Source: an uncultured virus (IMG/VR IMGVR_UViG_3300042868_013265) (lineage: Duplodnaviria > Heunggongvirae > Uroviricota > Caudoviricetes). From it: a stretch of DNA of 22,420 nucleotides. This document shows positions 1 to 22,420 of this stretch, in pieces; within the stretch, counting starts at the first letter, position 1; each line of letters opens with the position of its first letter. Under the pieces are notes generated by a model. That model was not told the DNA's origin and did no database searches. It saw only the letters and a list, made by a program, of their open reading frames with translations. Where the stretch lies: positions 62,001 through 84,420 of the IMG/VR virus record IMGVR_UViG_3300042868_013265; one strand, 5' to 3'. Both the position numbers and the translations under genes were made by a program.

Positions 1-1
1 C

Positions 2-3000: not shown

Positions 3001-5977
3001 GGGTTCAAGTGGCTCATCAGGAACATCAGGAGCGAATGGCTCAAGCGGTTCAAGCGGAACAAGTGGTTCTGCGGGCTCTTCAGGCACATCAGGAACTGCA
3101 GGCTCAAGCGGAACATCAGGAACTCGAGGTTCTTCAGGTTCATCAGGTTCTACAGGCTCAAGTGGGTCTACGGGTACGTCAGGCTCGAGCGGCTCAAGCG
3201 GAAGCGCGGGTACCTCAGGGGCAAACGGCTCAAGTGGTACAAGTGGGTCTTCAGGAAGTGCAGGTTCTACAGGGTCTTCGGGTTCATCAGGAACATCGGG
3301 TTCAAGCGGAACAAGCGGAAGTGCAGGTTCAAGCGGCTCTACAGGCTCAAGTGGCTCTACGGGCACTTCAGGCTCAAGTGGCTCGAGCGGAAGTGCAGGC
3401 ACATCGGGTGCAAATGGCTCAAGTGGTACAAGTGGTTCTGCAGGAAGTGCGGGTTCAAGTGGGTCTACGGGTTCGTCAGGAACTGCAGGTTCCTCAGGAA
3501 CGAGCGGTAGTGCGGGCTCAAGCGGCTCTACAGGCTCAAGTGGGTCTACAGGTACGTCAGGTTCCTCAGGCTCTTCAGGCACATCAGGAACTGCAGGTTC
3601 AAGCGGAACATCAGGAACTCGAGGTTCTTCAGGTTCTTCAGGTTCTACAGGCTCAAGTGGCTCTACGGGTACTTCAGGTTCAAGCGGAAGCGCGGGTACA
3701 TCGGGTGCAAACGGTTCTTCAGGAACATCAGGCTCAAGCGGAAGTACAGGTTCAAGTGGCTCTACAGGGTCAAGTGGAACATCAGGTTCTTCAGGAAGTG
3801 CGGGTTCTACAGGTTCTTCAGGGTCTTCAGGAACAGCGGGTTCATCAGGAACATCGGCATCAAGCGGAAGTTCAGGAAGCGCAGGTACTTCAGGGGCCAA
3901 CGGTTCTTCGGGTACTTCGGGCTCATCAGGAAGCGCGGGTTCTACGGGTTCATCAGGCTCAAGCGGAACAGCGGGCTCATCAGGAAGCGCAGGTTCAAGT
4001 GGTTCTACGGGTTCAAGCGGCACCGCAGGTTCAAGCGGAACTTCAGGTACACGCGGTTCATCAGGCTCAAGCGGTTCAGCGGGTACTTCAGGTGCGAATG
4101 GTTCAAGTGGTTCAAGCGGAACGAGTGGCTCTTCAGGAAGTGCAGGTTCAACAGGTTCGAGCGGTTCTACGGGTACATCAGGCTCAAGCGGCTCAAGTGG
4201 AACGAGCGGCTCTTCAGGAAGTGCAGGTTCAACAGGTTCGAGCGGTTCTACGGGTACATCAGGCTCAAGTGGCTCAAGTGGAAACACGGGTGCTGCGGGT
4301 TCATCAGGAACTTCGGGTTCTTCAGGAAGCGCAGGGTCAAGTGGTTCTACGGGTTCAAGCGGAACGAGCGGCTCATCAGGTAGCGCAGGCTCTACGGGTT
4401 CAAGCGGGTCTACGGGTACTTCAGGCTCAAGCGGCTCAAGCGGAAATACGGGTGCGGCAGGTTCTTCAGGAACGAGCGGCTCATCAGGTAGCGCAGGCTC
4501 TACGGGTTCTTCGGGTTCATCAGGAACTGCGGGTTCTTCAGGTACGTCAGGTACAAGAGGTTCATCAGGCTCAAGTGGTTCTACGGGTTCAAGCGGCTCT
4601 ACAGGTACGTCAGGCTCAAGCGGTTCAAGTGGAAACACGGGTGCGGCAGGTTCTTCAGGAACGAGCGGCTCATCAGGAAGCGCGGGTTCTACGGGTTCTT
4701 CAGGTTCTACGGGAACTTCGGGTTCGAGCGGTTCAAGTGGAAACACGGGTGCGGCAGGTTCTTCAGGAACATCGGGCTCAAGCGGTTCGAGCGGTTCAAG
4801 TGGAAACACAGGTGCGGCAGGTTCTTCAGGAACATCGGGCTCAAGCGGGTCAAGCGGAAACACGGGTGCAGCGGGTTCTTCAGGTACTTCGGGCTCAAGC
4901 GGTTCAAGTGGAAACACAGGTGCGGCAGGTTCTTCAGGAACTTCGGGTTCGAGTGGAAACACAGGTGCAGCAGGTTCATCAGGAACATCGGGCTCAAGTG
5001 GAAACACGGGTGCTGCAGGTTCTTCAGGTACTTCGGGCTCAAGTGGAAACACAGGTGCAGCAGGTTCTTCAGGCACAAGTGGTGTTAGTGGTGCAGCGGG
5101 TTCTTCAGGCACAAGCGGTGTCAATGGTGCGGCAGGTTCTTCAGGAACTTCGGGCGCGAATGGTGCGGCAGGGTCATCGGGTACGTCAGGAACAAGAGGT
5201 TCTTCAGGAACATCAGGTGCAAACGGTGCGAACGGTTCATCGGGTACAAGCGGTGTCAATGGTGCGGCAGGTTCTTCAGGAACTTCGGGCGCGAATGGTG
5301 CGGCAGGGTCATCGGGTACGTCAGGAACAAGAGGTTCTTCAGGAACATCAGGTGCAAACGGTGCGAACGGTTCATCGGGTACAAGCGGTGCAAACGGTGC
5401 AGCGGGTTCTTCAGGAACGTCAGGCTCAAGTGGTAATACAGGTGCTGCAGGTTCTTCAGGTACGAGCGGTACGAGCGTAGCCGTGAGCGGTACAACAAAC
5501 AGAATCGTTAAGTTTACGGCATCTACGACCATAGGTAACGCAAACGCGTCCGACGATGGAACGACATTCGAAGTCTTGAATACAGTTGGATTTAAGGCGG
5601 CCAAGTCGTTAGCAGTAGGTGCTTTGTCACCGTCAGCAACCACAGGTCGAATTGATGCTTCAAACGACATCGTAGCGTTCTCTACATCAGACAAACGCTT
5701 CAAAGAAAACGTGAAGCGAATTGAAAACGCCCTCGAGAAAATCAAGACAATCGGTGGATACTCATTCGATTGGCGCGAGGAAGGCTTCGAGGCTCACGGA
5801 TTCAAGGGAAGTGATGTCGGAGTAATCGCGCAAGAAATCGAGTCAGTGTTGCCCGAAATCGTGAAGGTAAAAGCAAACGGATTCAAGGGTGTACGTTATG
5901 AAAAAATCATCGCCTTGGTAATTGAAGCAATCAAGGAGTTGGATGATAAAGTGGAAAAACTAAAAAACAATCAATAA
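2..5977 (+). CDS. Giant Gly-X-Y (Ser/Thr-rich, Pro-free) collagen-like fibre protein with C-terminal peptidase S74 chaperone; 5'-truncated by the window edge, >=1991 aa
   Basis: Frame +2 reads TGSSGTSGSAGSSGTSGSAG... from base 2. Gly codons stay in 9-nt register from 5 to 5468 (5463 = 607 x 9). The frame continues without a stop into ORF 5483..5977 (...GTSGTSVAVSGTTNRIVKF...). That ORF has S74 motifs SDKRFKENV, YSFDW, DVGVIAQEIESVLPEIV and VRYEKIIALVIEAIKEL. Confidence 0.93.
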   Translation, partial: TGSSGTSGSAGSSGTSGSAGSSGTSGTAGSSGTSGTRGSSGSSGSTGTSGSSGTSGSTGSSGSTGSSGTSGSTGSSGSTGSSGTSGSSGTSGSTGSSGSTGSSGTSGSSGTSASSGSSGSAGTSGSSGTSGANGSSGSSGTAGSSGSAGSSGSTGSSGTSGSSGTSGSAGSSGSTGSSGTSGSAGSSGTSGSAGSSGTSGANGSSGTSGSSGSAGSSGSTGSSGTSGSSGTSGSTGSSGSTGSSGTSGSAGSSGTSGSAGSSGTSGTAGSSGTSGTAGSSGTSGTRGSSGSSGSTGTSGSSGTSGSTGSSGSTGSSGTSGSSGTSASSGSSGSAGTSGSSGTSGANGSSGSSGTSGSSGSAGSSGSTGSSGTSGSSGTSGSTGSSGSTGSSGSTGTSGSSGTSGVNGSSGSSGTSGSAGSSGTSGSAGSSGTSGSAGSSGSTGSSGSTGSSGTSGSAGSSGTSGSAGSSGTSGTAGSSGTSGTRGSSGSSGSTGTSGSSGTSGSTGSSGSTGSSGTSGSTGSSGSTGSSGTSGSTGSSGSTGSSGTSGSSGTSASSGSSGSAGTSGSSGTSGANGSSGSSGTAGSSGSAGSTGSSGSSGTSGSSGTSGSAGSTGSSGSSGSTGTSGSSGSSGTSGANGSSGSSGTSGSAGSSGTSGSAGSSGTSGSAGSSGTSGTAGSSGTSGTRGSSGSSGSTGSSGTSGSSGTSGSTGSSGSTGSSGTSGSSGTSASSGSSGSAGTSGSSGTSGANGSSGTSGSSGSAGSSGSTGSSGTSGSSGTSGSTGSSGSTGSSGTAGSSGTSGSSGSSGSAGTSGANGSSGTSGSSGSAGSSGSTGSSGTSGSAGSSGTAGTSGSSGTSGTAGSSGTSGTRGSSGSSGSTGTSGSSGTSGANGSSGTSGSSGSAGSSGSTGSSGTSGSTGSSGSTGSSGTSGSSGTSGSSGSAGSSGSAGTSGANGSSGTSGSAGSAGSSGSTGSSGTAGSSGTAGSSGSAGSSGSTGSSGTSGSSGSSGTSGANGSSGSSGTSGSAGSSGTSGTAGSSGTSGTRGSSGSSGSTGSSGSTGTSGSSGSSGSAGTSGANGSSGTSGSSGSAGSTGSSGSSGTSGSSGTSGSAGSSGSTGSSGSTGTSGSSGSSGSAGTSGANGSSGTSGSAGSAGSSGSTGSSGTAGSSGTSGSAGSSGSTGSSGSTGTSGSSGSSGTSGTAGSSGTSGTRGSSGSSGSTGSSGSTGTSGSSGSAGTSGANGSSGTSGSSGSTGSSGSTGSSGTSGSSGSAGSTGSSGSSGTAGSSGTSASSGSSGSAGTSGANGSSGTSGSSGSAGSTGSSGSSGTAGSSGSAGSSGSTGSSGTAGSSGTSGTRGSSGSSGSAGTSGANGSSGSSGTSGSSGSAGSTGSSGSTGTSGSSGSSGTSGSSGSAGSTGSSGSTGTSGSSGSSGNTGAAGSSGTSGSSGSAGSSGSTGSSGTSGSSGSAGSTGSSGSTGTSGSSGSSGNTGAAGSSGTSGSSGSAGSTGSSGSSGTAGSSGTSGTRGSSGSSGSTGSSGSTGTSGSSGSSGNTGAAGSSGTSGSSGSAGSTGSSGSTGTSGSSGSSGNTGAAGSSGTSGSSGSSGSSGNTGAAGSSGTSGSSGSSGNTGAAGSSGTSGSSGSSGNTGAAGSSGTSGSSGNTGAAGSSGTSGSSGNTGAAGSSGTSGSSGNTGAAGSSGTSGVSGAAGSSGTSGVNGAAGSSGTSGANGAAGSSGTSGTRGSSGTSGANGANGSSGTSGVNGAAGSSGTSGANGAAGSSGTSGTRGSSGTSGANGANGSSGTSGANGAAGSSGTSGSSGNTGAAGSSGTSGTSVAVSGTTNRIVKFTASTTIGNANASDDGTTFEVLNTVGFKAAKSLAVGALSPSATTGRIDASNDIVAFSTSDKRFKENVKRIENALEKIKTIGGYSFDWREEGFEAHGFKGSDVGVIAQEIESVLPEIVKVKANGFKGVRYEKIIALVIEAIKELDDKVEKLKNNQ
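4118..4279 (+). repeat. 81-bp near-identical tandem duplication inside the fibre gene
   Basis: ggaacgagYggctcttcaggaagtgcaggttcaacaggttcgagcggttctacgggtacatcaggctcaag occurs at 4118 and 4199. Confidence 0.85.
5111..5390 (+). repeat. 135-bp tandem duplication (2 copies plus 10 bp) inside the fibre gene
   Basis: acaagcggtgtcaatggtgcggcagg... starts at 5111 and again at 5246. A third start at 5381 diverges after 10 nt. Confidence 0.9.
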
Positions 5978-6654
5978 TGGCAGTTCCATCATCAAACATA
6001 AGTATGACGGCTATCTATCAGGAGGCGAACGCAGGTTCGCCTCCATCAGATTTAGCGGTGAGCGACTTATTCAAAAAATCATATTTTGAAAGTAATGCAT
6101 TTGGTGGCTCCCTTACATTTAATGCTTGGGGACAATATGGGAATGCGAGTGGAGCAGATAGGATTTATGGATTAAGTGCAAGTGATACCAATAACAATTT
6201 CAATCAGTTTGCGTCAAAAGTTTATTATATGGATAATTCAACTTATGCAAACTATGTAGATATTATTAATAATTTGAGTCCCCCCGCTCCCCCCGCGCCT
6301 CCTTTTGATAATGACATTGATGTATTTTGTAGATTATATGATTCTACAGGTACACATATTTATAGTTCATTTTTCCAAAGCGTATTTGCAGGTGGAAGTG
6401 TATCGCAAATATTCAGTAATACCACTGAACCGATTTTGGCAGTAGCATATTGGGAGGTTCAGTTTCAGCCTGTCAGTGGAAGTTTTGGTGGTACAACTTG
6501 TAATATTGGCATCAATAATACAAGTGTAGTAAGTGGTGGAACTATTAATGCAACAGGTATTACAACTTTTGATTTCAGCACTTTAGGAAGCGTAGCAGTA
6601 GGCTCAAGTTCGTCAGGGTATATTGGTACTTACTTTGATATTAGTATTGGTTGA
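5977..6654 (+). CDS. Probable fibre-associated virion protein (tip/adhesin-like), 225 aa
   Basis: TAATG-coupled to the fibre gene. The N-terminus MAVPSSNISMTAIYQEA...LAVSDLF resembles the MAxPxSxxIS motif of proteins that often follow phage tail fibres. A Pro linker (PPAPPAPP) precedes a beta-rich S/T/G/aromatic C-terminal domain. Confidence 0.55.
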   Translation: MAVPSSNISMTAIYQEANAGSPPSDLAVSDLFKKSYFESNAFGGSLTFNAWGQYGNASGADRIYGLSASDTNNNFNQFASKVYYMDNSTYANYVDIINNLSPPAPPAPPFDNDIDVFCRLYDSTGTHIYSSFFQSVFAGGSVSQIFSNTTEPILAVAYWEVQFQPVSGSFGGTTCNIGINNTSVVSGGTINATGITTFDFSTLGSVAVGSSSSGYIGTYFDISIG

Positions 6655-6655
6655 T

Positions 6656-6663
6656 TAAATTTG
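6656..6663 (+). promoter_or_regulatory. Bacteroidota sigma-70 -7 element (TAAATTTG)
   Basis: Matches TAnnTTTG, 21 nt upstream of the ATG at 6685. Confidence 0.45.
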
Positions 6664-6684
6664 TACAAAATTAAATATGTAATT

Positions 6685-6942
6685 ATGGAAAAAATATTAT
6701 TAACCGAAGAGGAATTAAATGAAAGCAGAATCATTAGCCAAATTCAGACCGATTTGAATTCACACGTAACAAAGTTTACAAGAGAAATAGAATCGCTAAA
6801 ATTGAAACGTAAATACGCCCTTGAAGAATTGAATGAATTGGATGAAAAAAACAAAGTCTTTTTTAAGGGAATCACCAACAAATATGGGTATGTTAAAATA
6901 AACCTTGAAACAGGCGAAGTAACCCCAATAGATGAAAAATGA
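6685..6942 (+). CDS. Small coiled-coil hypothetical phage protein, 85 aa
   Basis: ATG at 6685 (MEKILLTEEEL...) is preferred over TTG 6661, which overlaps the promoter motif. Heptad-like helix ending KYGYVKINLETGEVTP. Confidence 0.75.
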   Translation: MEKILLTEEELNESRIISQIQTDLNSHVTKFTREIESLKLKRKYALEELNELDEKNKVFFKGITNKYGYVKINLETGEVTPIDEK

Positions 6943-7412
6943 TAGTTGTTTTTTATGGTAAAAGAAACTCAGGAAAGACAACACTGTGTCGTGAGTTTTA
7001 CGGTTGGGTGAAGCAAAATTTACCTCTTAGGTGTCACTATTTAGATGCAGATAAACTGCGATTTGTTTATGGGTTAAAAGGGTTTTCAGAACAGACGGAA
7101 AGGGCTTTAATACAAAAAGCGATGGAAATATCGCGTTATGAGGAAAGTTTAAATGACGTTGTTTTGATTAGTATTTCTTTTGCATATAAAGACCAAAGAG
7201 CAATATTCGAAGAAAACAAAGGGATTTTATGGGTTCCGTTAACACACGATGAGTCTAAAAGACCTACCAATAAAAAAGAATTTGAAAATCCTGAATTTGA
7301 AAAATTAGAGAATGAAATTAACACATCTGAAAATGATGTTAAATCGGCATTGAATATGGTAATTCAACGCTACAAAGATTTTTGTGTAACTTCGCAATAT
7401 AAGGGGAAATGA
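6939..7412 (+). CDS. Adenylyl-sulfate (APS) kinase-like P-loop kinase, shortened CysC-like, 157 aa
   Basis: Walker A GKRNSGKTT. LDADKLR (cf. CysC LDGDNIR), GFSEQTER (cf. GFSxEDR), ISFAYKDQR (cf. ISPYRxDR) and FENP (cf. YExP) occur in CysC order. Confidence 0.7.
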   Translation: MIVVFYGKRNSGKTTLCREFYGWVKQNLPLRCHYLDADKLRFVYGLKGFSEQTERALIQKAMEISRYEESLNDVVLISISFAYKDQRAIFEENKGILWVPLTHDESKRPTNKKEFENPEFEKLENEINTSENDVKSALNMVIQRYKDFCVTSQYKGK

Positions 7413-7630
7413 CAACTCAACAGCAACAAAGCGCAATGATTGAAAAATGGGTAAATCGCATACTTCTTGGAATATGCGCATTTTTCTGTGCTCAATTATT
7501 TGCGGATATGAAAACTCAACGTCAGGACATAGAAGAAGTGAAATTGAGTAATGCGAGAATTGAAACGGAAATAAAGTACATCAGAGAAATGGTGGAGCCG
7601 TATCGAAATAATAAAATAGTTAACAATTAA
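7409..7630 (+). CDS. Small single-TM plus coiled-coil membrane protein (holin-like or virion membrane protein)
   Basis: Hydrophobic ILLGICAFFCAQLF followed by heptads. ATGA overlap with the upstream gene. Confidence 0.65.
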   Translation: MTTQQQQSAMIEKWVNRILLGICAFFCAQLFADMKTQRQDIEEVKLSNARIETEIKYIREMVEPYRNNKIVNN

Positions 7631-7636
7631 AAAATT

Positions 7637-7939
7637 ATGCCAATACCTGTAGCAATAGCGGCAGCATTAATCACAACGGCAGGTAGTACGGCTGTAGGTG
7701 GTTTAGATGTTGTCTCAAAACGAAAACTTGAAAAAAACCTTGCTAAATTAAACGCTGCGGAGGCAGAGGCTCTTCAAAAGCAATTAGCAAAAGAAAAGGA
7801 CGCTCAAACCAAATTGATTTTATTGCAGGATGCTGCGGATAAAGCGCAAAAAAGGAGCACGACGAATATAATTATTGGCTCTACAATAGGTTTAATCGGC
7901 CTCATTGCTGCAATTATCGTGTTTAAAAAGAAAAAATGA
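7637..7939 (+). CDS. Small membrane protein: hydrophobic N-terminus, coiled coil, C-terminal TM with KKKK tail
   Basis: MPIPVAIAAALITTAG... and IIIGSTIGLIGLIAAIIVFKKKK. Confidence 0.8.
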   Translation: MPIPVAIAAALITTAGSTAVGGLDVVSKRKLEKNLAKLNAAEAEALQKQLAKEKDAQTKLILLQDAADKAQKRSTTNIIIGSTIGLIGLIAAIIVFKKKK

Positions 7940-8256
7940 TGGAGTTTTCAAAAGAAGTAAAAAACGCTGTAATTATTGCAGTTGCGACAATTACTTTATA
8001 TATGTTGTTAAAACCTAAAAAGAATGGTATAAGTAAGCCTATGAAGGCTACTAAAGATGAATTGAGTCAAAAACAAAACGCCCGAACTATTTTGGATGCT
8101 TACTTAAACGCGGTTGATGCAAAAGAATCACCAACAGCATTGCAGAAGTTGAATTCAATTTTTGCAGATGAATATTCGATGAAGGTATTTAAAACCAAAA
8201 GTGGTAGTTATGTTGCAAGGACTTTAGATGGTAAAGATGTATTGGTAGCAAAATAA
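7936..8256 (+). CDS. Hypothetical protein with N-terminal TM anchor
   Basis: AVIIAVATITLYMLL followed by KPKK. ATGA overlap. Confidence 0.8.
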   Translation: MMEFSKEVKNAVIIAVATITLYMLLKPKKNGISKPMKATKDELSQKQNARTILDAYLNAVDAKESPTALQKLNSIFADEYSMKVFKTKSGSYVARTLDGKDVLVAK

Positions 8257-8705
8257 TGGCCACGTTCTCTCCAATCATAACGGTTTATCCTAATGACGCA
8301 GTAAGAGTTACGAGCGTTTCGGATTTGACTTATGAAACGGTGAACGCAAGTGTTGGAACAGGATACTATTACGATTTTAAAAATTTTTATCAGTATTCAA
8401 CATCCTTAGAACAATTAATTGAACCAATCTACTTGCTCAAATTTAGTAAACAGGGGGACCGAAATGTTTACTATTTGAATAATACGATTGACCCATATCA
8501 AAAATCATCGGCATTGTCTGTAGATGCTGAATATCTTGATTATAGATTTGACTCTAACAATGCATTCATACCACGAATACTTGCAAACACATCATTATTT
8601 TACCGCTTTGATATTCAAGAACTTAGTAATGAAGATTTTTTGACTAAAGGTGAAAGTAATTTTGGATTGATTGATTTTTACGAAAACTACGAAATAGACT
8701 TCTGA
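8256..8705 (+). CDS. Hypothetical beta-rich protein, possibly structural, 149 aa
   Basis: TAATG-coupled ORF rich in Y/F/N/S/T; no motif recognised. Confidence 0.75.
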   Translation: MATFSPIITVYPNDAVRVTSVSDLTYETVNASVGTGYYYDFKNFYQYSTSLEQLIEPIYLLKFSKQGDRNVYYLNNTIDPYQKSSALSVDAEYLDYRFDSNNAFIPRILANTSLFYRFDIQELSNEDFLTKGESNFGLIDFYENYEIDF

Positions 8706-9067
8706 TGCCCGCCAAAAAAATCATATTGAACATAGAAAATCATACGCCCTATCCTGCGTTAATTTCTATTTTAGGTGGACTTCAAGACCCAAACCAATAT
8801 AATGTGAATTCCGCAACGGAATACTTATATGATATTGGAAACTTTAATTGGAATAACTCAAGTACTTGGACAATACAGTTTAAACGAGTTGGAGCAGCAA
8901 ACTTCAGTATCAAACAAGGTTCTACAGGTGGTAATCCACAACAATTTTTAATAGCCCTTAATCTTTCGTCTTTGGGTTTATTTAACTATATCAAAATCAG
9001 TGCAAACATTTCGTTGATTTACACTTTCAACGATTATTACGAGTTTGGTCAACTTACATTAAACTAA
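8705..9067 (+). CDS. Hypothetical beta-rich protein, possibly structural, 120 aa
   Basis: TGATG-coupled; ends right before a terminator hairpin. Confidence 0.75.
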   Translation: MPAKKIILNIENHTPYPALISILGGLQDPNQYNVNSATEYLYDIGNFNWNNSSTWTIQFKRVGAANFSIKQGSTGGNPQQFLIALNLSSLGLFNYIKISANISLIYTFNDYYEFGQLTLN

Positions 9068-9089
9068 AAACCACCCCGAAAGGTGGTTT
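9066..9089. terminator. Intrinsic terminator between convergent operons, probably bidirectional
   Basis: AAACCACC-ccgaaa-GGTGGTTT inverted repeat; A-run on the left gives a U-tract on the minus strand. Confidence 0.75.
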
Positions 9090-9183
9090 ACAGTCTGAAG
9101 GAACAGTCACTTCTCAATAGAATCTTTAAAATCGTCGAATTCAAAATACTTTTATATTTTGCAACAACGACACGAATTTAAAC

Positions 9184-9969
9184 TCAATCCTCTGTATATG
9201 CAAGTTTTGCATATAGTCCCTTTTTCGTAGGCTTTTTGTCATTTACAATAATAACCCTTTCTTCATCATCGAGAGTCAAAACTGCACCACCCTCAACTTG
9301 GTCATCAAAACTTAACGCTCTTGAACCTAAGGAATCTTTTGGCAACAGTTTCGACAATTGTTTCAGGACGATTTTTTTAAGCATCCAAAATTGACTGTCT
9401 TTTGCATCATTGAAATACAATTCATTCCTGTTTGGTAAATTGGCAACAATAGTTTCTAATTCTTTTTTTGACATCACCTTAAAAACCTTTTCTTCATCGC
9501 GGGTTTTTACCATTGCGTAAATGTGAGTAAGCGAAATGGATGTTCTCAAATCGTCTTTGGGTTTATGTCGTAAAATTGGCTCAAGTCCAAGTTCATAATC
9601 AAATTCATCCGCTTCGTGCACAGACTCGCACCAAATCGTTTTTACGCCATTATTTCGCATCAGGAGTGTAATCACACCTTTGTATCCCAAAATAGGCTTA
9701 ATATGCCCCTTATAAGGCAAAAAGAAGAACTCTCCAACAGAAGGATTGGGACTCAATCCTAATTCTGCGCAATGAATGATTGCCGCAAATAGGTTGCGTG
9801 GATTTTTTTGGAAGGCAAAGAGCATTTCTTCATTTCTTCTGACTTCAGTTAAAACGACCTGTTTAAATTGCGCAGGTGAAATCGAATGACTTTTTAACAA
9901 ATCAACCAACACCTTTTGTTCAAAGGTGTCAAGTTGTATGCTGAATTTAGTTAGTAGTGCGTTATCCAT
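9184..9969 (-). CDS. recT: RecT-family single-strand annealing protein
   Basis: AIIHCAELGLSPN...FFFLPY...ILGYKGVITL...VHEADEFDYELG...IYAMVK...VMSKKEL...MLKKIVLKQLSKLLPK matches the RecT pattern. Confidence 0.9.
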   Translation of the reverse strand: MDNALLTKFSIQLDTFEQKVLVDLLKSHSISPAQFKQVVLTEVRRNEEMLFAFQKNPRNLFAAIIHCAELGLSPNPSVGEFFFLPYKGHIKPILGYKGVITLLMRNNGVKTIWCESVHEADEFDYELGLEPILRHKPKDDLRTSISLTHIYAMVKTRDEEKVFKVMSKKELETIVANLPNRNELYFNDAKDSQFWMLKKIVLKQLSKLLPKDSLGSRALSFDDQVEGGAVLTLDDEERVIIVNDKKPTKKGLYAKLAYTED

Positions 9970-9976
9970 TTTTATA

Positions 9977-10192
9977 TTATTGCGATTGTAAAATACTAAG
10001 AGCCTCTTTCATTAGTCTGACTTTCTTTAAGTCATCCTGTGTGTACCCGTGAATGTCAAGGATGCGATTAAATGTTGTCATTTTTTGCTTCAGAATGTCA
10101 ATTGAATCGGACAATGATTCATTTACAAGCAACTCATTTACAATTTGTGTGGCTTCTTTACAATCAGGGAAAGGAATAAAATTTTCGTTCAT
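9977..10192 (-). CDS. Hypothetical helical protein, 71 aa
   Basis: TAATG-coupled to the upstream gene; fills the operon gap. Confidence 0.7.
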   Translation of the reverse strand: MNENFIPFPDCKEATQIVNELLVNESLSDSIDILKQKMTTFNRILDIHGYTQDDLKKVRLMKEALSILQSQ

Positions 10193-11409
10193 TATGGCTT
10201 GGGATTAATATCAATGAGTGATTTTTGACCGATGTGAATGAATAAATTGTCTTTGGTTAAAATCTGTTGCCTGTTTGGATATTCATCCGCAAATGTCAAT
10301 TCCCATCCGTGGTCTTTGTGAAATATTTTATTCTCGAAAACACGTCTGCGAAAAATTGAAGGATTGTTACCATAGTTGTTCATTTTAACTTCTTGCCATT
10401 TTAAAAATCCATTTTGCATTTCGTAAAAGTGCCTGTAATCTTTAGGGAAAGGGTTTTTCCAATAATATTCGTTCACAGAAGTTTCGGCTTTAATTTCATC
10501 CGTCTGAATATCAAATACCTGTGAAAACATAATTTGGTCAAATGCGGAATGCTTTTTCAAATAGTTAATGTGTTTACCCAAATCAAGAGGTCTTACGGAT
10601 TCCCAATCATCTTCAAGTAAAAATACAAACTCACTTGGACCCATCAAATGTTTAATCATATTGAATTTGTCAACGTAATCAAATTGACCATTATTGTTGA
10701 AAGTAATCAAATGGGCTTTTTCACCAAACAAGGCATCCAAATATAATTCCATTTTATATCGCTCTTCAGAAGTACTTCGGTCATCTAAAACCCAAACTTC
10801 ATTGAACATTGTACGGTAGTTTGGATTGTGTTTTTGTAGCGATTTGAGAGTCCGCATAAAGTAATCAAAACGTCTCCCTGAAGAAATTATCAAGTTAGGG
10901 GCAACGTGAGGCTCATAATTAATGTAATAGCCATATTCGTCATCTCCGAATAATAACTTCAAATTTGGGTATCGGCTTGCCATTATTTCGGGTGTTAAAT
11001 CGGGCTGATGGTGTGTCTCATAAATATTGCCTTCATATTCACCTTGTTCATCTAAATAAGGAACAGCAACTAAACATTTGATGTTGTACGTCTCGATTTG
11101 ACCCATCAATAATGTTGCATCAGATGGCGTAAGATGTTCAAGTACATCTCCCAAAATAAGATAATCATACATTAAAATATTGACTGTCATAATGTTTTGC
11201 TGATAAATGGTATTATATTTAGAAGCAAGGTTAAATTGAGCAATGTAAGGGTCCCAAATTTCAACAGCATCCATTGGGATTTTTAAAAGGTCTGCATAAG
11301 TCCCTGAACCCGCTCCAACATCAAGGACGCGGGGATTTGAGGTGTTTTGGAGTTCTAAGAGGATGTGCTCTCGAACATTGTGCTTGAATTTATTGTATGA
11401 GTATGGCAT
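10192..11409 (-). CDS. Fusion of a class I SAM-dependent methyltransferase (N-terminal) and a GT-A/GT2-like glycosyltransferase (C-terminal)
   Basis: N half: VLDVGAGSG and LILGDVLEHL. C half: IISSGRRFDYFMRTLKSL, VWVLDDRST, FVFLLEDDW (acidic metal-binding motif), NNPSIFRR and FIHIG. Confidence 0.8.
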   Translation of the reverse strand: MPYSYNKFKHNVREHILLELQNTSNPRVLDVGAGSGTYADLLKIPMDAVEIWDPYIAQFNLASKYNTIYQQNIMTVNILMYDYLILGDVLEHLTPSDATLLMGQIETYNIKCLVAVPYLDEQGEYEGNIYETHHQPDLTPEIMASRYPNLKLLFGDDEYGYYINYEPHVAPNLIISSGRRFDYFMRTLKSLQKHNPNYRTMFNEVWVLDDRSTSEERYKMELYLDALFGEKAHLITFNNNGQFDYVDKFNMIKHLMGPSEFVFLLEDDWESVRPLDLGKHINYLKKHSAFDQIMFSQVFDIQTDEIKAETSVNEYYWKNPFPKDYRHFYEMQNGFLKWQEVKMNNYGNNPSIFRRRVFENKIFHKDHGWELTFADEYPNRQQILTKDNLFIHIGQKSLIDINPKP

Positions 11410-11410
11410 A

Positions 11411-12205
11411 TTAGTAAAACACTTGTTTAATTTTGGGTAACAGGGCGCGTTGAGGGCAAGTCTCGTTTAAATGACATTTGTTGCATCTTTTCATCTCAGG
11501 ATATGCTTTCCATCCATTTGCTGATTTGATTTCTCTTTTAAGTGCTTGAGAGACATTTTTCACCCCTTCTAAATGCTCCATCTCCTTGCTTGGGTCTACC
11601 AACACTTCAAAAATGCGAACATCCATTGGGTCTTTGGTATTGAATACAAAAAAGTAAAAAGGCACATCCGTGGTTTTAAATTTTTCTTTAGCAATAATTT
11701 TGTAATGAACTGCCTGAGTCAAAATCTTTTCCTTTTGCTCAAGGAAGTCTTCGTGCCAACCCATTTCATTCCATTTGTCATCTACCAAGCCCGAATATTT
11801 CAAATCGATGATACACTTCTTTCCATTCCACTTTGCAATAATATCGGTTGTGCAAGACATATTCAATTTTGAACTCACCAATTTCTTTCCAAAACTGAGA
11901 ATTTTGATGTTCATCGCTTTGAAAATTGCTTTGCAAAAAATCGAACTTTGAAATGCTCTTTCGTAATCTTCTGAAAGTTTTTCTTTTGCGGTTCCTTTGT
12001 ACACTTTATCGGGCTCAGGCGGTGTTCCATCACCATAAGCGGGAAGTCCTCCCGTGGCCATATATTCGAAATATTGACCAAGTTTCATTGCTTTAGTGGG
12101 TGTAGATTGAATACCGTCGAGGTATTTTGCTTTCACAACTAAGCCACACTCTTCCTTTACCTTGTATTCGGCAAAAGATTTCATAAAGGATTGACTAATT
12201 TTCAT
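11411..12205 (-). CDS. PD-(D/E)XK exonuclease, Cas4/AddB-like with Fe-S cysteines; likely RecE-role partner of RecT
   Basis: ISQSFMK start, TTDII...IIDLKYS and QAVHY motifs. One N-terminal Cys (EECG) plus C-terminal CNKCHLNETC. Confidence 0.8.
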   Translation of the reverse strand: MKISQSFMKSFAEYKVKEECGLVVKAKYLDGIQSTPTKAMKLGQYFEYMATGGLPAYGDGTPPEPDKVYKGTAKEKLSEDYERAFQSSIFCKAIFKAMNIKILSFGKKLVSSKLNMSCTTDIIAKWNGKKCIIDLKYSGLVDDKWNEMGWHEDFLEQKEKILTQAVHYKIIAKEKFKTTDVPFYFFVFNTKDPMDVRIFEVLVDPSKEMEHLEGVKNVSQALKREIKSANGWKAYPEMKRCNKCHLNETCPQRALLPKIKQVFY

Positions 12206-12410
12206 TTGGGTTATGTTTTAAAAAATAAGTTTTGAAAAATGAATCGCTTACGCTCATTTGTACTAAAATCAGATTGCTCCAATTAATTGCAGCGTAGAAT
12301 TTGCCGTCTTTTTTTCGGAGCAGTACATCAAAACGTCGGCATACAAAATATTTGTTCTCTTCTGTCGCTGACAGGGCTTTGGTAAAATACTCTTCTACGG
12401 TGTTTTCCAT
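12195..12410 (-). CDS. Hypothetical protein, 71 aa
   Basis: Overlaps both neighbours in the leftward operon. Confidence 0.65.
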   Translation of the reverse strand: MENTVEEYFTKALSATEENKYFVCRRFDVLLRKKDGKFYAAINWSNLILVQMSVSDSFFKTYFLKHNPNEN

Positions 12411-12883
12411 AAGGGTAAAATATCAATTAGGGTTTGCCCCTGATTCAATACATAGCAATTTGATTCCCGTTGACGTTCAATCAACCAATCGTCCCAATTG
12501 TCCATTACAAGTGTTATCAAACTTTGGGGTGATTCACGTTGTTGCATTCTTTTGTAATATTCTTTTTTACAATTCAATGCAGGAATTACAATTGTAAAAT
12601 CTATGTAGTTTTGCTGCATACACTCACGAACATTTTCGTGACTACTCACAAACACGAAATCAAGAAAATCGTGCTTAATTTGAAATTTAATGTGGTCAAT
12701 ATAGTTTTGTGGGAAAGCAGGATTTGGTATTCTTGCCCCATTATCCGTTTTAAGGAAATCGCCATTAGGGTCCGTAAGCCAATTCCATTGACTTGAATCA
12801 CAGTCAACACACATAAAATTGGAATTGCGAGCCGCATAGGTCTTTCCAATCGCGGGAAATCCTGATATTATTTTTGTAGCCAT
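12395..12883 (-). CDS. Small phage P-loop (NMP-kinase-like) NTPase
   Basis: IISGFPAIGKT Walker A, DCDSS, FPQNYIDHIK, VFVSSH and KKEYYKRMQQR. Confidence 0.8.
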   Translation of the reverse strand: MATKIISGFPAIGKTYAARNSNFMCVDCDSSQWNWLTDPNGDFLKTDNGARIPNPAFPQNYIDHIKFQIKHDFLDFVFVSSHENVRECMQQNYIDFTIVIPALNCKKEYYKRMQQRESPQSLITLVMDNWDDWLIERQRESNCYVLNQGQTLIDILPLWKTP

Positions 12884-13137
12884 AAAAAATTACGGGTGTT
12901 AAAACCGATTTGATAATTTACTTCTTGATTAAATTTTGGGCGATTTTGCTCAATAAATTCAACTTCAAGTTGTTTGACATACACATCAAGCCATTCGCGT
13001 GCTTGAGAAGGAGTCTCAAAACTGCGGGATGGCTGTTTAATAAGAGGCAACCATAACAGATTAAAAATTCTTCTGTCAATCACGTACCCCCCTTGCGAAA
13101 ATTCGCGAATTCGGAATTGTAGTTTTTTTGTTTTCAT
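12868..13137 (-). CDS. Hypothetical protein, 89 aa
   Basis: ATGA-type overlap with the upstream gene; operon continuity. Confidence 0.7.
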   Translation of the reverse strand: MKTKKLQFRIREFSQGGYVIDRRIFNLLWLPLIKQPSRSFETPSQAREWLDVYVKQLEVEFIEQNRPKFNQEVNYQIGFNTRNFLWLQK

Positions 13138-13388
13138 ATGTTAGTTGTTTTTTTGGACCAACCCCTTCCATTCCACATCACTTGACCCGTTTTTGTTTCT
13201 TTAACGCTCACATCAATCACAAGAGTCTCAGAAGTCTCTCTAACCAAATTTGTCAATATATAACCTTTGTCTTTAAAATGGTCATCGTTACATACTTTTT
13301 CAAGGACCGCTCTTGCACTGTGCTTATTATGCGCCTCTACGCTTATTGGCTTGTCGATGTCAAGGAAATAATACTTGTAGATTTTCAT
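13134..13388 (-). CDS. Hypothetical protein, 84 aa
   Basis: ATG start, operon continuity, plausible composition. Confidence 0.7.
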   Translation of the reverse strand: MKIYKYYFLDIDKPISVEAHNKHSARAVLEKVCNDDHFKDKGYILTNLVRETSETLVIDVSVKETKTGQVMWNGRGWSKKTTNI

Positions 13389-13426
13389 TAACTTCGAAGT
13401 GATTTACTGTAATGGTAAGTCGTGTG

Positions 13427-13461: not shown

Positions 13462-13800
13462 TTATTTTCCGTAACCCAAATCTTTTTTTACCACCCTTGT
13501 GTGTTTTTGACGCGATAACCATTGCTCTCCGCGCAAATTAGGATTCTCTTCTTGAACCTTTTGCCATTGGCGGGCAATAGATGCTTGGTGGTCAAATTTT
13601 CCATCAGCATAATGAGTAAAAAACTCGGTTGCGCTTAATGTCTTAAAATCAATTTGATTGGTGGGGCCATTAATATGAAACCAATAGTTGCATATTGTTC
13701 GAAGTAAATTGTCACGGAGGGTTGCGTCCGATTCCAATAGAAGTTTTACATTGTGTTTTACGTCACCACGTTTTCCGTTTATTTTAAATGCTTGTGTCAT
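13462..13800 (-). CDS. Hypothetical phage protein, 112 aa
   Basis: VKLLLESDATLRDN...SIARQWQKVQEENPNLRG; ATGA-coupled to the upstream gene. Confidence 0.75.
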   Translation of the reverse strand: MTQAFKINGKRGDVKHNVKLLLESDATLRDNLLRTICNYWFHINGPTNQIDFKTLSATEFFTHYADGKFDHQASIARQWQKVQEENPNLRGEQWLSRQKHTRVVKKDLGYGK

Positions 13801-14180
13801 AAGTCAAATGAATCAATATCAAAAAATTGAATATGGTCTTTAATGTTGTCAAAAATTTGTCGGTGGGCTACAGACTCACCGTCTTTGTCACAACCGATTA
13901 TTAAACCGTTGTTAAAAAATGGTCCATAGACGTTGTCTTTAGCGGCTTGGAATGCAAACGCACCTTTAATATAGCCGTCGCCTTTGACAAGACTTTCCTC
14001 GTCAACAAAACAAGTGTCTATATGCGATTTAGATTCAACAGCAGAAACAATTGGTAGGTAAAAACCTTTTTCAATCATTTCGCATTCAAGACCTAACGCA
14101 TCATACATAGATTGTAGGCCACCTTCGATTTCGATTTCGTAAACCTCTTTGCTTACTACGTCAATTTTGATACATTTCAT
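13797..14180 (-). CDS. DUF3846-like phage protein
   Basis: GLQSMYDALG...IE...CFVDEESL...GLIIGCDKDGES pattern recalled from DUF3846-type proteins. Confidence 0.6.
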   Translation of the reverse strand: MKCIKIDVVSKEVYEIEIEGGLQSMYDALGLECEMIEKGFYLPIVSAVESKSHIDTCFVDEESLVKGDGYIKGAFAFQAAKDNVYGPFFNNGLIIGCDKDGESVAHRQIFDNIKDHIQFFDIDSFDL

Positions 14181-14424: not shown

Positions 14425-14832
14425 TTAAAATTTTATTGAAAAGGGTAAAAAGTCGGGTTGAGGCTCCAAATACTTTTTCAATTCGTTGTAAATAACGATT
14501 GCCGTAAGTCTATCAGAGGCCATTTTTTTGCCTTTGAAAAATAACGATGCTTCTTCTTTTACGGTGTCGATGCATCCAAAACAATAAGTTCTTTTAGATA
14601 CAGGTGATGCATTCAATTGATAAGGTTGCAGTACAGCAAACTCTTGTCCACTTTCTTCGTATTTGTAGTAATTAAAGAAATACCCATTCAATCTTATTTC
14701 CTTCGCAACTGAGTCATTAAATATCAGTCGGTTTCTCTCTACTACATTCTTACCATCATTTGTAAGGTAGTCCAACATTGTTGCTCGGTCCAAAACCTTT
14801 TCGAAACGCATAGGTGTAAGTTGTAAATTCAT
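14425..14832 (-). CDS. Hypothetical protein, 135 aa
   Basis: Starts 5 nt after the stop of the PolB-like gene. Confidence 0.75.
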   Translation of the reverse strand: MNLQLTPMRFEKVLDRATMLDYLTNDGKNVVERNRLIFNDSVAKEIRLNGYFFNYYKYEESGQEFAVLQPYQLNASPVSKRTYCFGCIDTVKEEASLFFKGKKMASDRLTAIVIYNELKKYLEPQPDFLPFSIKF

Positions 14833-14837
14833 ATTTT

Positions 14838-15569
14838 TTAATATTCTAACTGTTTATAAGAAAATTGCTCGGCATCCAAGTACTCGTACACTTTACGACG
14901 ATTATCTGCGGTGTCTCGGTAATAAATGCAATCAGTTCGGTAAGCCTCAAAATCATTACCAAGTATTTCTGCAATCGATGACATCATTTCAAAGCATTTG
15001 TACCTGATACCACGGTACAGCAGATTAATTCTTGGGTCTTCACATTCAATAATAATAGGTTTGTTTTGCTTGACACCATTTTGAAATTCCTGATAAGCAA
15101 CGCTTCTGCCTAAAACTGCAAGTGCAGCCAATCGAATTACTTTCCAATCGTTTCCTTGCGCTTTATTAAAAGTGTTGTCGCTGATGATTCCAAGTTTATG
15201 TGCAATTACCCAATATGCACTATTGATATCGGTCCCCGTGATAACCCCATAGGAAGCATCGTAATCATAATTGGTTTGGTTTACAGGATATTTATCGGGA
15301 ACCGTCCAATTTGGATTTTGCTTCAAAAACTTTATAGCATCATTTTTCACCAACTTGAATATGAACAACTTGTTTGCAGGGAAACTTTTTGTGTCTCGAC
15401 TTTTGTAAATCGTTTCAACACCCTGATAAACAATCTGAGTCATAAACTTAGTTTCGCGGTAAATGAAATTTTCACCCATTTTTACCAAACGATTCATCAC
15501 CGATTTGGGATTTGCACTTGGTTGAAAACGACTTTCAATAATGCCAAAGGTTTCGCTCTTTTTTGCCAT
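14838..15569 (-). CDS. Minimal family-B DNA polymerase-like protein (palm motifs only), 243 aa
   Basis: Motif A-like ITGTDINSAYW (D114, Y119), divergent motif B-like WKVIRLAALAVLG (K143) and motif C-like AYRTDCIYY (D213). No exonuclease motifs seen, and only 30 aa follow motif C. Confidence 0.65.
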   Translation of the reverse strand: MAKKSETFGIIESRFQPSANPKSVMNRLVKMGENFIYRETKFMTQIVYQGVETIYKSRDTKSFPANKLFIFKLVKNDAIKFLKQNPNWTVPDKYPVNQTNYDYDASYGVITGTDINSAYWVIAHKLGIISDNTFNKAQGNDWKVIRLAALAVLGRSVAYQEFQNGVKQNKPIIIECEDPRINLLYRGIRYKCFEMMSSIAEILGNDFEAYRTDCIYYRDTADNRRKVYEYLDAEQFSYKQLEY

Positions 15570-15578
15570 TGTGATTTA

Positions 15579-15609
15579 CGAAATTAAGCAAACAAATATT
15601 ATTTTCAAA
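15579..15609 (-). promoter_or_regulatory. Bacteroidota-type promoter for the PolB-like gene
   Basis: Minus strand TTTG-N19-TAATTTCG, 9 nt before the ATG. Confidence 0.5.
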
Positions 15610-15618
15610 AATAATTTA

Positions 15619-21549: not shown

Positions 21550-21621
21550 AGCGGGGAAGTGTAGTGGTTGCATTCTTGGCTCATAACCAAGAGGAAGTAG
21601 GTTCGATTCCTACCCCCGCTC
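21550..21621 (+). tRNA. tRNA with CAT anticodon (Met-like; atypical; CCA not encoded)
   Basis: Acceptor AGCGGGG/CCCCGCT, D arm GTGT-AGTGGTT-GCAT, anticodon arm CTTGG-CTCATAA-CCAAG and T arm GTAGG-TTCGATT-CCTAC. Confidence 0.9.
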
Positions 21622-21634
21622 CTAAATTACAAAT

Positions 21635-22276
21635 ATGGAACTTGAAAAATATGTGTATCCCGAAAATCACGGTGAATTGGCAGAATCTTTTTATGATGAA
21701 ATTTATCACGGACACGAGTACGACAGGTACTTCAAAATAAATAAATACGACACGATTATTGATTGCGGAGCGTTCATAGGAATGTTTACCAATTATGCTA
21801 TCACGCAAGGCGCGATGCGTATTATCACCGTTGAATGTGAAACCCCATATTACAATTGCTTAATTAAAAACGTCAGCAACATCAGAGTTGAAACTCTTTT
21901 TGCAAAAGTGTCTCAAGAAAATATACCAAGTGATAATCCCAAGGTTCCACCTTCAATTACAATTGAAGAAATTATGAATCAAAAGAACTTACCTAAAGTC
22001 GATATGGTAAAAATGGATATTGAGGGTGCAGAATGGGGTGTTTTAATTAATATGGACGATGATGTTATGAAGAGGGTGGATAAGTGGGCTATTGAAGTTC
22101 ATTTGGATTGGAGTCAAAACGATACAGTTTGGGCAGGTCACGGTAGAGACTTTGATGGGCACCTTTTAAGCAAACTTGTATTCGTGATGGAAAAGTTCTC
22201 TAAGAATGGCTTTAAAGTCAATTACGAGCAGATACACAAAGATTGCAGGCTTGCAATGTTGTATGCGTACAAATAG
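21635..22276 (+). CDS. FkbM-family SAM-dependent methyltransferase
   Basis: TIIDCGAFIGMFT, ITVE, VDMVKMDIEGAE and AIEVH motifs. Confidence 0.9.
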   Translation: MELEKYVYPENHGELAESFYDEIYHGHEYDRYFKINKYDTIIDCGAFIGMFTNYAITQGAMRIITVECETPYYNCLIKNVSNIRVETLFAKVSQENIPSDNPKVPPSITIEEIMNQKNLPKVDMVKMDIEGAEWGVLINMDDDVMKRVDKWAIEVHLDWSQNDTVWAGHGRDFDGHLLSKLVFVMEKFSKNGFKVNYEQIHKDCRLAMLYAYK

Positions 22277-22301
22277 GGTTAGTATTTGTTTCGCGAAAAT
22301 G

Positions 22302-22324
22302 GAGCCCTGAGGGGCTCTTTTTTT
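22302..22324 (+). terminator. Intrinsic terminator
   Basis: GAGCCC-tgag-GGGCTC followed by T7. Confidence 0.85.
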
Positions 22325-22326
22325 GT

Positions 22327-22419
22327 TTAAGGGGTACTTGTACCCCATTTACCCCTTTTCCTTTCCCTGAGAGCCTCCTTTACCCTGTTACCGTTTACTG
22401 TTACCGTAACACTCTTCGG
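22327..22419 (-). CDS. 3' end of a leftward gene entering from beyond the window
   Basis: Open frame PKSVTVTVNGNRVKEALRERKRGKWGTSTP* stops next to the terminator. Confidence 0.4.
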   Translation of the reverse strand, partial: PKSVTVTVNGNRVKEALRERKRGKWGTSTP

Positions 22420-22420
22420 T

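Follow-up and report, generated by a model that had tools for sequence, protein, structure and literature searches.

Family B DNA polymerases (PolBs), such as the Pol alpha core, Escherichia coli Pol II, the archaeal KOD and Tgo enzymes, and RB69 gp43, are proteins of roughly 550 to 1000 amino acids (aa) or more in which a palm domain carries three motifs in the order A (DxxSLYPS), B (Kx3NSxYG), and C (YxDTDS). In the phages phi29 (p2/p3) and PRD1 (P1/P8), a polymerase is paired with a terminal protein, and inverted terminal repeats flank a linear genome; in the PRD1 record the gene for the terminal protein is followed by that for the polymerase at the left end. The linear replicons of Streptomyces (Tpg/Tap) have long terminal inverted repeats, are copied by the cell's replisome inside, and have their ends completed by a short protein-primed fill-in. 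The CcPol-MP type of primase from SCCmec, described in PMC10061031 for elements of Bacillota, combines a family A polymerase domain with a protein (SSB) that binds single-stranded DNA and has an OB fold, and poxvirus F12 is described in another article (PMC4304020) as an inactivated polymerase. Here we describe a locus in the last 22.4 kb (22,420 nucleotides [nt]; positions 62,001 to 84,420; hereafter, the window) of an 84,420-bp record of an uncultured virus of the Caudoviricetes (IMG/VR IMGVR_UViG_3300042868_013265) that is classed as having inverted terminal repeats. The gene of interest encodes a protein of 243 aa (P0001, here called the palm protein), which is probably an active PolB-like nucleotidyltransferase working with the product of a conserved partner gene directly upstream.

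The palm protein has the palm, the Asp positions, and the motif order A-B-C of the PolBs. Its gene is a single uninterrupted open reading frame (ORF) that starts with ATG on the minus strand (Table 1), and translation of the plus strand across the same interval is riddled with stops. A preliminary description, made from the sequence alone, had called the gene intact and pointed to three polymerase-like motifs, all of which were located: DINSAY at residues 114 to 119; K143, followed by VIRLAALAVLG, 24 residues past Y119 and 29 past D114; and YRTDC at residues 210 to 214, in which the presumed catalytic Asp is D213. The C terminus lies 30 residues after D213, also as described. The spacing of 70 residues between motifs B and C is within the usual range for PolBs; in contrast, the 29 residues between motifs A and B, the absence of an exonuclease domain and a thumb, fingers consisting of two short helices, and an apparent need for an adjacent partner are unlike PolBs. 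One earlier claim was not supported, namely, that the gene has its own promoter-like motif. The motif is a 9/12 sigma-70-like match (TTGATA, 16 nt, AATATT) inside the gap upstream of the gene, and such sites were no more common in the 3.3-kb region (7 observed) than in shuffled sequence (8.7 ± 2.8).

Table 1. Positions, within the window, of the palm gene, its motifs, and the other features discussed
Feature	Position	Strand	Basis
PolB-like palm plus mini-fingers protein gene, 243 aa	14838..15569	-	ORF, model
Motif A-like segment TDINSAYW, residues 113 to 120	15210..15233	-	D114 at end of strand 110-115
Motif B-like segment, residues 143 to 154, helix 140-151, key residue K143	15108..15143	-	Conservation and model
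Motif C-like segment YRTDCIYY, residues 210 to 217	14919..14942	-	D213 at turn of hairpin 207-211/214-218
Gap between partner and palm genes, 49 nt, with promoter-like motif	15570..15618	-	Sequence
Conserved upstream partner gene, 347 aa	15619..16662	-	Profile, blastp, model pLDDT 84.6
Third cassette gene, 135 aa; its start is 5 nt past the palm gene	14425..14832	-	blastp relatives in 18/62 loci
PD-(D/E)XK exonuclease (DUF3799)	11411..12205	-	PF12684, E 2.9e-8; relatives in 48/62 loci
RecT single-strand annealing protein	9184..9969	-	PF03837, E 3.3e-28; relatives in 48/62 loci
Right inverted terminal repeat copy, 127 bp	22294..22420		Identical to reverse complement of genome 1-127

An exhaustive homologue search of 1.84 billion cluster representatives matched 317 of them, each standing for a cluster at 50% identity, at an E value of ≤0.001, with 111 matches at ≤1e-10 and 36 at ≤1e-30. 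The best 150 of the 317 representatives were 67 to 359 aa long. A word-indexed search yielded 125 relatives among 327 candidates, and the relatives listed from it were 133 to 289 aa, all unnamed and all without a Pfam domain. Among 886 candidates of 427 to 2000 aa there were no fused or longer homologues, although this is weak evidence. The preliminary description had allowed that the homologues might all be full-length PolBs, which would make this gene a decayed one; because the homologues are uniformly short, the palm protein is not a fragment of a full-length polymerase.

Conservation was evaluated in a wide set of 131 diverse homologues with identities down to ∼20%. The two Asp residues, on whose conservation the preliminary description had made the polymerase reading depend, were essentially invariant: D114 was present in 131/131 homologues and D213 in 129, the remaining two having gaps at this position. 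K143 was conserved in 130. Residue 119 was Tyr in 121 homologues and Phe in 10, W120 was kept in 127, and T212 was kept in 99. The residues invariant in the 37 closer homologues include T113, D114, A118, Y119, W120, K143, T212, D213, C214, I215, and Y217. Judged from these alignments, the motifs of the palm protein are far beyond chance, and the most conserved residues of the family are exactly those that a polymerase would need. Motif A follows the pattern D-[IL]-x-[HS]-[AC]-Y-W, with Trp occupying the position of the PolB Pro, and motif C follows the pattern [YWF]-x-T-D-[CAG]-[IV], in which T-D is retained. In motif B, position +4 from K143 was Leu in 83 of the homologues and Asn in 34, and the divergent members have the pattern K-x3-N-[AS]-x-[IL]-G-x-L-[GA], which lacks the PolB Tyr and is much nearer to Kx3NSxYG than is the version in the window protein.

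The family is abundant, and it has escaped annotation. Searches of PHROGs, NCBIfam, and PADLOC with P0001 and its neighbors gave nothing beyond chance for P0001, PHROGs gave one marginal match for the 131 homologues, and tblastn of P0001 at an E value of ≤0.001 found no match among 50,697 phage records (INPHARED). Some database members (the cluster of P0087) are named enamine deaminase RidA (YjgF/YER057c/UK114 family) in one source; this name had no support from Pfam and was rejected. Literature searches found no description of a palm-only or minimal PolB family or of phages that have one. A term search of the available part of a study of PolB diversity (PMC7544198) returned no truncated or thumb-less forms; fragments of <200 residues were removed from the data set of that study, the supplements of which could list short PolB-like sequences. 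Homologues were also present in five metagenome-assembled genomes (MAGs) labeled Planktophila, Bathyarchaeia, Sediminibacterium, Ignavibacteria, and a gammaproteobacterium, and no host can be assigned because these labels are mutually inconsistent. The MAG labeled Sediminibacterium also has a 1411-aa open frame with a DNA_pol_B match in two halves ∼1 kb apart, which could reflect an insertion such as an intein.

An AlphaFold2 model of the palm protein, built from an alignment of 37 sequences, had a mean pLDDT of 92.9 and a pTM of 0.82. From residue 110 onward it consists of a strand (110 to 115), a helix, an insertion, two strands (207 to 211 and 214 to 218), a helix (221 to 233), and a final strand (238 to 241), and this predicted topology, beta-alpha-beta-beta-alpha-beta, is that of the palm in right-hand polymerases. 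D114 is placed at the end of the first palm strand and D213 at the turn of the hairpin. The insertion, residues 131 to 206, comprises the helix with K143, a small hairpin, and a long helix and is, as modeled, a much reduced fingers element. A thumb is absent, because the protein stops at residue 243, two residues past the last palm strand, and the ∼95 residues preceding the palm, from within which (residues 64 to 95) the best fold matches begin to align, are too few for an exonuclease domain. Together with the short distance between motifs A and B, these features agree with the earlier statements that the protein has no room for 3'-5' exonuclease, TPR, or thumb domains and is unlikely to be a standalone replicase. 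The possibility, also raised earlier, that a model might show no palm fold was not borne out, as a palm was present and its best fold matches were family B polymerases.

These matches differed between methods. The Foldseek list against the Protein Data Bank (PDB) was almost wholly composed of polymerases, and its top rows were reverse transcriptases (RTs) and their relatives (TERT, LINE-1 ORF2p, HIV RT, and retron RTs), with Abi-P2 and AbiK at E values of 0.065 to 0.069. Such matches are what would be expected if the palm protein were an RT-like or template-independent nucleotidyltransferase (AbiK/Abi-P2, DRT type, or a signaling nucleotide synthase) with a role in counter-defense or regulation rather than in replication. 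A weak RVT_1 match in one of the 131 homologues (E value, 0.0024) and the likeness of D-x-x-S-A-Y-W to motif A of RTs point the same way. However, the TM-scores to RTs were low (0.21 to 0.26), and in full structural alignments the closest solved structures were PolBs, with a best Z of 8.8 compared to 6.6 for RTs, a difference of ∼2 units. Furthermore, motif B of the divergent members is PolB-like, PADLOC gave no match, and the gene is core to its lineage and sits among recombination genes. Thus, an RT-like function seems improbable.

In BFVD there were five matches at an E value of ≤0.001, and the named matches lower down included a "Divergent family B DNA polymerase" of 290 aa and a "DNA polymerase B-like protein." PF03175 and PF00136 were each present on 10% of members in the nearest named clusters of the ESM Atlas (scores, 0.86 and 0.84), which serve as leads only. 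UL8-type proteins appeared in rows 22 and 28 of the BFVD list, and the PolB-derived folds of herpesvirus UL8 and poxvirus F12 come with similar structural scores. An inactivated PolB relic that, as has been suggested for UL8 and F12, has become a structural or scaffolding subunit would account for these similarities, and the loss of the exonuclease and thumb resembles decay. However, UL8 and F12 have lost the catalytic residues that are invariant in the palm family, in which no positions are better conserved than the presumed metal ligands and the Lys presumed to bind phosphate. Because such a pattern is unexpected for an inactive protein, we regard a relic as highly improbable. By its predicted fold and motifs, the palm protein would work like the core of a family B polymerase; because it lacks an exonuclease domain, a thumb, and a significant profile match, it is not filed here as a member of the PolBs.

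The 347-aa neighbor mentioned in the preliminary description proved to be a real gene on the minus strand, and inspection of the gene neighborhood, which had been suggested there, revealed a conserved pair. In 62 related viral loci, on which all counts of the partner and of neighboring genes are based, the partner was directly upstream of the palm gene on the same strand in every case. Homologues of the partner were detected by blastp in 53 of these loci, and seven of the nine blastp-negative loci were inspected, each of which had an ORF of 310 to 327 aa with the same build. A partner profile built from 35 proteins, which match by construction so that the other 27 loci are the independent ones, found a match in 62/62 loci, always upstream, on the same strand, and 284 to 354 aa long. 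In 58 loci the partner and palm genes were separated by −11 to 51 nt, and in the other 4 by 377 to 812 nt; these mostly short distances suggest that the two genes form one operon.

In the partner alignment, only T138 and R161 were invariant beyond the start Met, with a conserved Tyr near residue 197. The partner model (pLDDT, 84.6; pTM, 0.43) comprises, in order, three N-terminal helices forming a basic region, an alpha/beta domain at approximately residues 95 to 205, a disordered linker rich in Lys, Arg, and Glu, and a C-terminal helical hairpin. The ESM Atlas gave no usable match to it. The C terminus had a weak match to SHOCT in 5 of the 35 profile members and to SHOCT_2 in 8. Two variants of the palm protein, of 355 and 359 aa (P0126 and P0134), carry one or two copies of a SHOCT-like motif at the N terminus that match the C-terminal motif of the partner, a fusion that gives a weak hint, from sequence, that the tail of the partner and the palm protein act together. 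No context for these two variants was found in viral contigs.

The gene pair is associated with the ends of linear genomes. Among 21 records with the palm gene and reported ends, 5 are classed as having inverted terminal repeats and 16 as linear, and none is classed as circular. The repeats are 127 bp (records G000 and G014), 123 bp (G012 and G020), and 653 bp (G007) long, the last being perfect, and in a sixth record the first 114 bp recur in inverted orientation 791 to 905 bp from the opposite end. The palm gene was ≤11 kb from a contig end in 26 of the 30 contigs of ≥45 kb; the end concerned was the one upstream of the gene in 23 contigs and the other end in 3. This consistent position argues for fixed genome ends with the gene pair in the terminal region. 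Terminal fold-back palindromes were not found in two end regions. No DNA polymerase, primase, helicase, or protelomerase could be recognized in the genome by Pfam or PHROG. The terminase, portal, and major capsid protein were also unrecognized in these searches, and thus much of the genome is simply unreadable. Four large ORFs (550, 764, 969, and 1094 aa) had no sequence match in the PDB, and the largest of them had no tblastn match in the 50,697 phage records. The sequencing runs that hold the end sequence of the genome are lake-water and freshwater metagenomes. This virus lineage is very poorly charted.

The palm and partner genes lie in one leftward gene block with genes for RecT and a PD-(D/E)XK exonuclease, which are present in 48 of the 62 loci, and RusA is also encoded in the genome. 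Recombination-dependent replication could employ the pair as a DNA-primed, de novo primase-like, or gap-filling polymerase that acts with RecT, the exonuclease, and RusA and has no part in protein priming or at genome ends. There is a precedent in the truncated family A polymerase domains that, with a small DNA-binding partner, are primases on mobile elements, as described in PMC10061031. CcPol-MP and the pair described here are alike in having a truncated replicative-type catalytic domain encoded beside a gene for a small second protein on a mobile element, with initiation rather than bulk synthesis as the function, a proposed one for the pair. They differ in that CcPol-MP is of family A, has an OB-fold SSB as its partner, where no OB fold is shown for the partner in the window, and belongs to elements of Bacillota rather than to phages with terminal repeats. 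The conservation of the active site fits a recombination polymerase equally well. However, such a polymerase leaves unexplained both the position of the pair near the end in 26/30 long contigs and the inverted terminal repeats that recur in this virus group. Furthermore, RecT and the exonuclease were absent from 14 of the 62 loci, some of which are short, and the partner was never absent. An exclusive role in recombination is thus considered unlikely.

The preliminary description had listed priming, protein priming, end processing, and a role as one subunit among several as possible functions, and any of these may apply. In the explanation that we favor, the palm protein would be a family B-type catalytic core composed of an N-terminal domain of ∼95 residues, the palm, and vestigial fingers. 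D114 and D213 would be the ligands of the two catalytic metals, K143 would bind the phosphates of the deoxynucleoside triphosphate (dNTP) from its position on the short helix of the fingers, and Y119 is a candidate steric gate for the sugar, which would make dNTPs the substrate. Because this core appears too small to hold a primer-template alone, it would function together with the upstream gene product as a two-protein enzyme, and the basic partner would be the DNA-binding subunit that holds the DNA. At the genome ends, the pair would begin or patch DNA synthesis, with bulk synthesis carried out by the host replisome and by recombination with RecT, the exonuclease, and RusA. A linear genome of ∼85 kb with inverted terminal repeats and no other recognizable polymerase makes initiation or patching at the ends the most likely job of such an enzyme. 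Three observations favor an enzyme that is dependent on its partner and linked to the ends: the partner is present in 62/62 loci, inverted terminal repeats occur, and the gene pair is in a terminal position. Catalytic activity, use of dNTPs, and physical pairing with the partner are inferred, and the explanation as a whole, a two-protein enzyme that starts or patches DNA synthesis at genome ends, is plausible at somewhat less than even confidence.

It is possible that the partner is also a protein primer, that is, a terminal protein. The palm protein would then attach the first nucleotide or nucleotides to a hydroxyl of the partner at the inverted-repeat ends of these 60- to 130-kb freshwater phage genomes, a course of events that we would not expect but would not find surprising, and the host replisome would then take over, or the palm protein would patch behind it. 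Terminal proteins are linked covalently to 5' ends through Ser, Thr, or Tyr, and the invariant T138 and the Tyr near residue 197 of the partner are candidates only for the priming residue. As in phi29 and PRD1, the genomes of these phages are linear and have inverted terminal repeats, and the order of the partner and palm genes near the genome end is the same as that of the terminal protein and polymerase genes in the PRD1 record. However, the genome is 4 to 6 times larger than those of phi29 and PRD1, and the pair is located 1 to 11 kb from the end, not at the end. True protein priming with the partner as the terminal protein is speculative and on the unlikely side. The likeness to end patching in Streptomyces is one of concept only, as the Streptomyces systems are thought to use cellular polymerases, in contrast to a dedicated mini-polymerase here.

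Several results weigh against the favored explanation, beginning with the assignment of the palm protein to the PolB fold. P0001 had no Pfam match at an E value of ≤0.1, and among the 131 homologues, searched at E values of ≤10, no Pfam family matched more than two members; the PolB families PF00136 and PF03175 were absent from the 25 families shown. The first Asp of the PolB DTDS is replaced by Lys or Arg in 79/131 homologues. An hhalign comparison of the family with a phi29/PRD1 profile gave a probability of 0.6%, the profile being a narrow one (Neff, 2.6), and a PDB sequence search with the family profile found only chlorophyll a/b-binding proteins at E values of 0.31 to 3, which were taken as chance. 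Foldseek returned no PDB match to the model at an E value of ≤0.001. Known protein-primed PolBs have TPR1 and TPR2 insertions and a thumb, which build the tunnels for the terminal protein and the DNA; the palm protein lacks all of these and has no room for them. For the partner, no likeness to a terminal protein was detected and no named family was recognized; Foldseek gave no solved fold (best E value, 0.58), and neither did the fold list, which in effect covered only residues 280 to 346 (the C-terminal hairpin). In addition, a divergent replicase could be hidden in the large unannotated ORFs of the genome.

The genome ends call for caution as well. In four records the repeat, at 127 or 123 bp, has a length that resembles an assembler overlap, 127 bp being equal to the maximum k-mer size of a widely used metagenome assembler. 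A sister record with 100% identity extends 362 bp further at the left end and has 77 bp less at the right, and thus the ends of the record are not physical ends. The true terminal repeat may be longer than 127 bp. In favor of a genome end, contigs from four other lake runs start 12 to 84 nt from the extended left end, and none passes it. The contigs of the terminal ∼490 bp at the left end of the sister record had a lower mean word depth than the adjoining inner contigs in two of the four lake runs (4 compared to 6, and 4.7 to 5 compared to 10.1), although an inverted repeat present twice would be expected to have more. Since depth was low and calculated per contig, this is only a hint that the ends are under-recovered.

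Downstream of the palm gene, an ORF of 97 to 146 aa with start and end motifs similar to those of the third cassette gene was present in ∼43 of the 62 loci by a crude motif count, and a distant clade has a different ORF of ∼150 aa in its place. The same leftward block also encodes a DUF3846 protein (13797 to 14180, minus strand; E value, 1e-5, just under the Pfam cutoff) and a 162-aa member of phrog_4182 (12395 to 12883, minus strand; E value, 8.7e-43). A tRNA-Met (CAT) gene is located near the right genome end at 21550 to 21622 on the plus strand. Elsewhere in the genome, a 371-aa ORF (genome positions 27676 to 28791) has both DUF2958 and a RelA/SpoT nucleotide pyrophosphokinase domain (E value, 3.8e-16).

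The window opens with the end of a giant plus-strand ORF of 5338 aa (genome positions 51961 to 67977; window positions 1 to 5977), composed of 40% Ser, 30% Gly, and 14% Thr, in which ∼4700 residues in collagen-like Gly-X-Y runs are followed by a globular C-terminal tail of ∼100 aa. In the first 6 kb of the window, this ORF accounts for a GC content of 55% and for three stop-free frames that overlap. At least 10 ORFs for glycosyltransferases or FkbM-type methyltransferases and two further collagen-repeat proteins are found in the genome (genome positions 139 to 13419 and 46071 to 51968; window positions 10192 to 11409 and 21635 to 22276). These enzymes may decorate the giant Ser/Thr-rich fiber.

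The palm protein represents a family that is abundant, with 317 clusters at 50% identity, yet unannotated and absent from Pfam, PHROGs, NCBIfam, and PADLOC. If active, it would rank with the smallest known right-hand DNA polymerases and would provide a natural experiment in how little of a family B enzyme suffices when a partner supplies substrate binding. Enzyme engineers could likewise be interested in so compact a polymerase core. To our knowledge, protein priming has been described only in small genomes that have full-size polymerases. If protein priming does occur in these phages, the palm protein would be by far the smallest protein-priming DNA polymerase and the first without TPR1, TPR2, and a thumb, and the pair would represent, in phages, an equivalent of the end patching of Streptomyces. 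A two-protein enzyme that starts or patches DNA synthesis at genome ends would, if confirmed, be a new way of end handling for large linear phage genomes.

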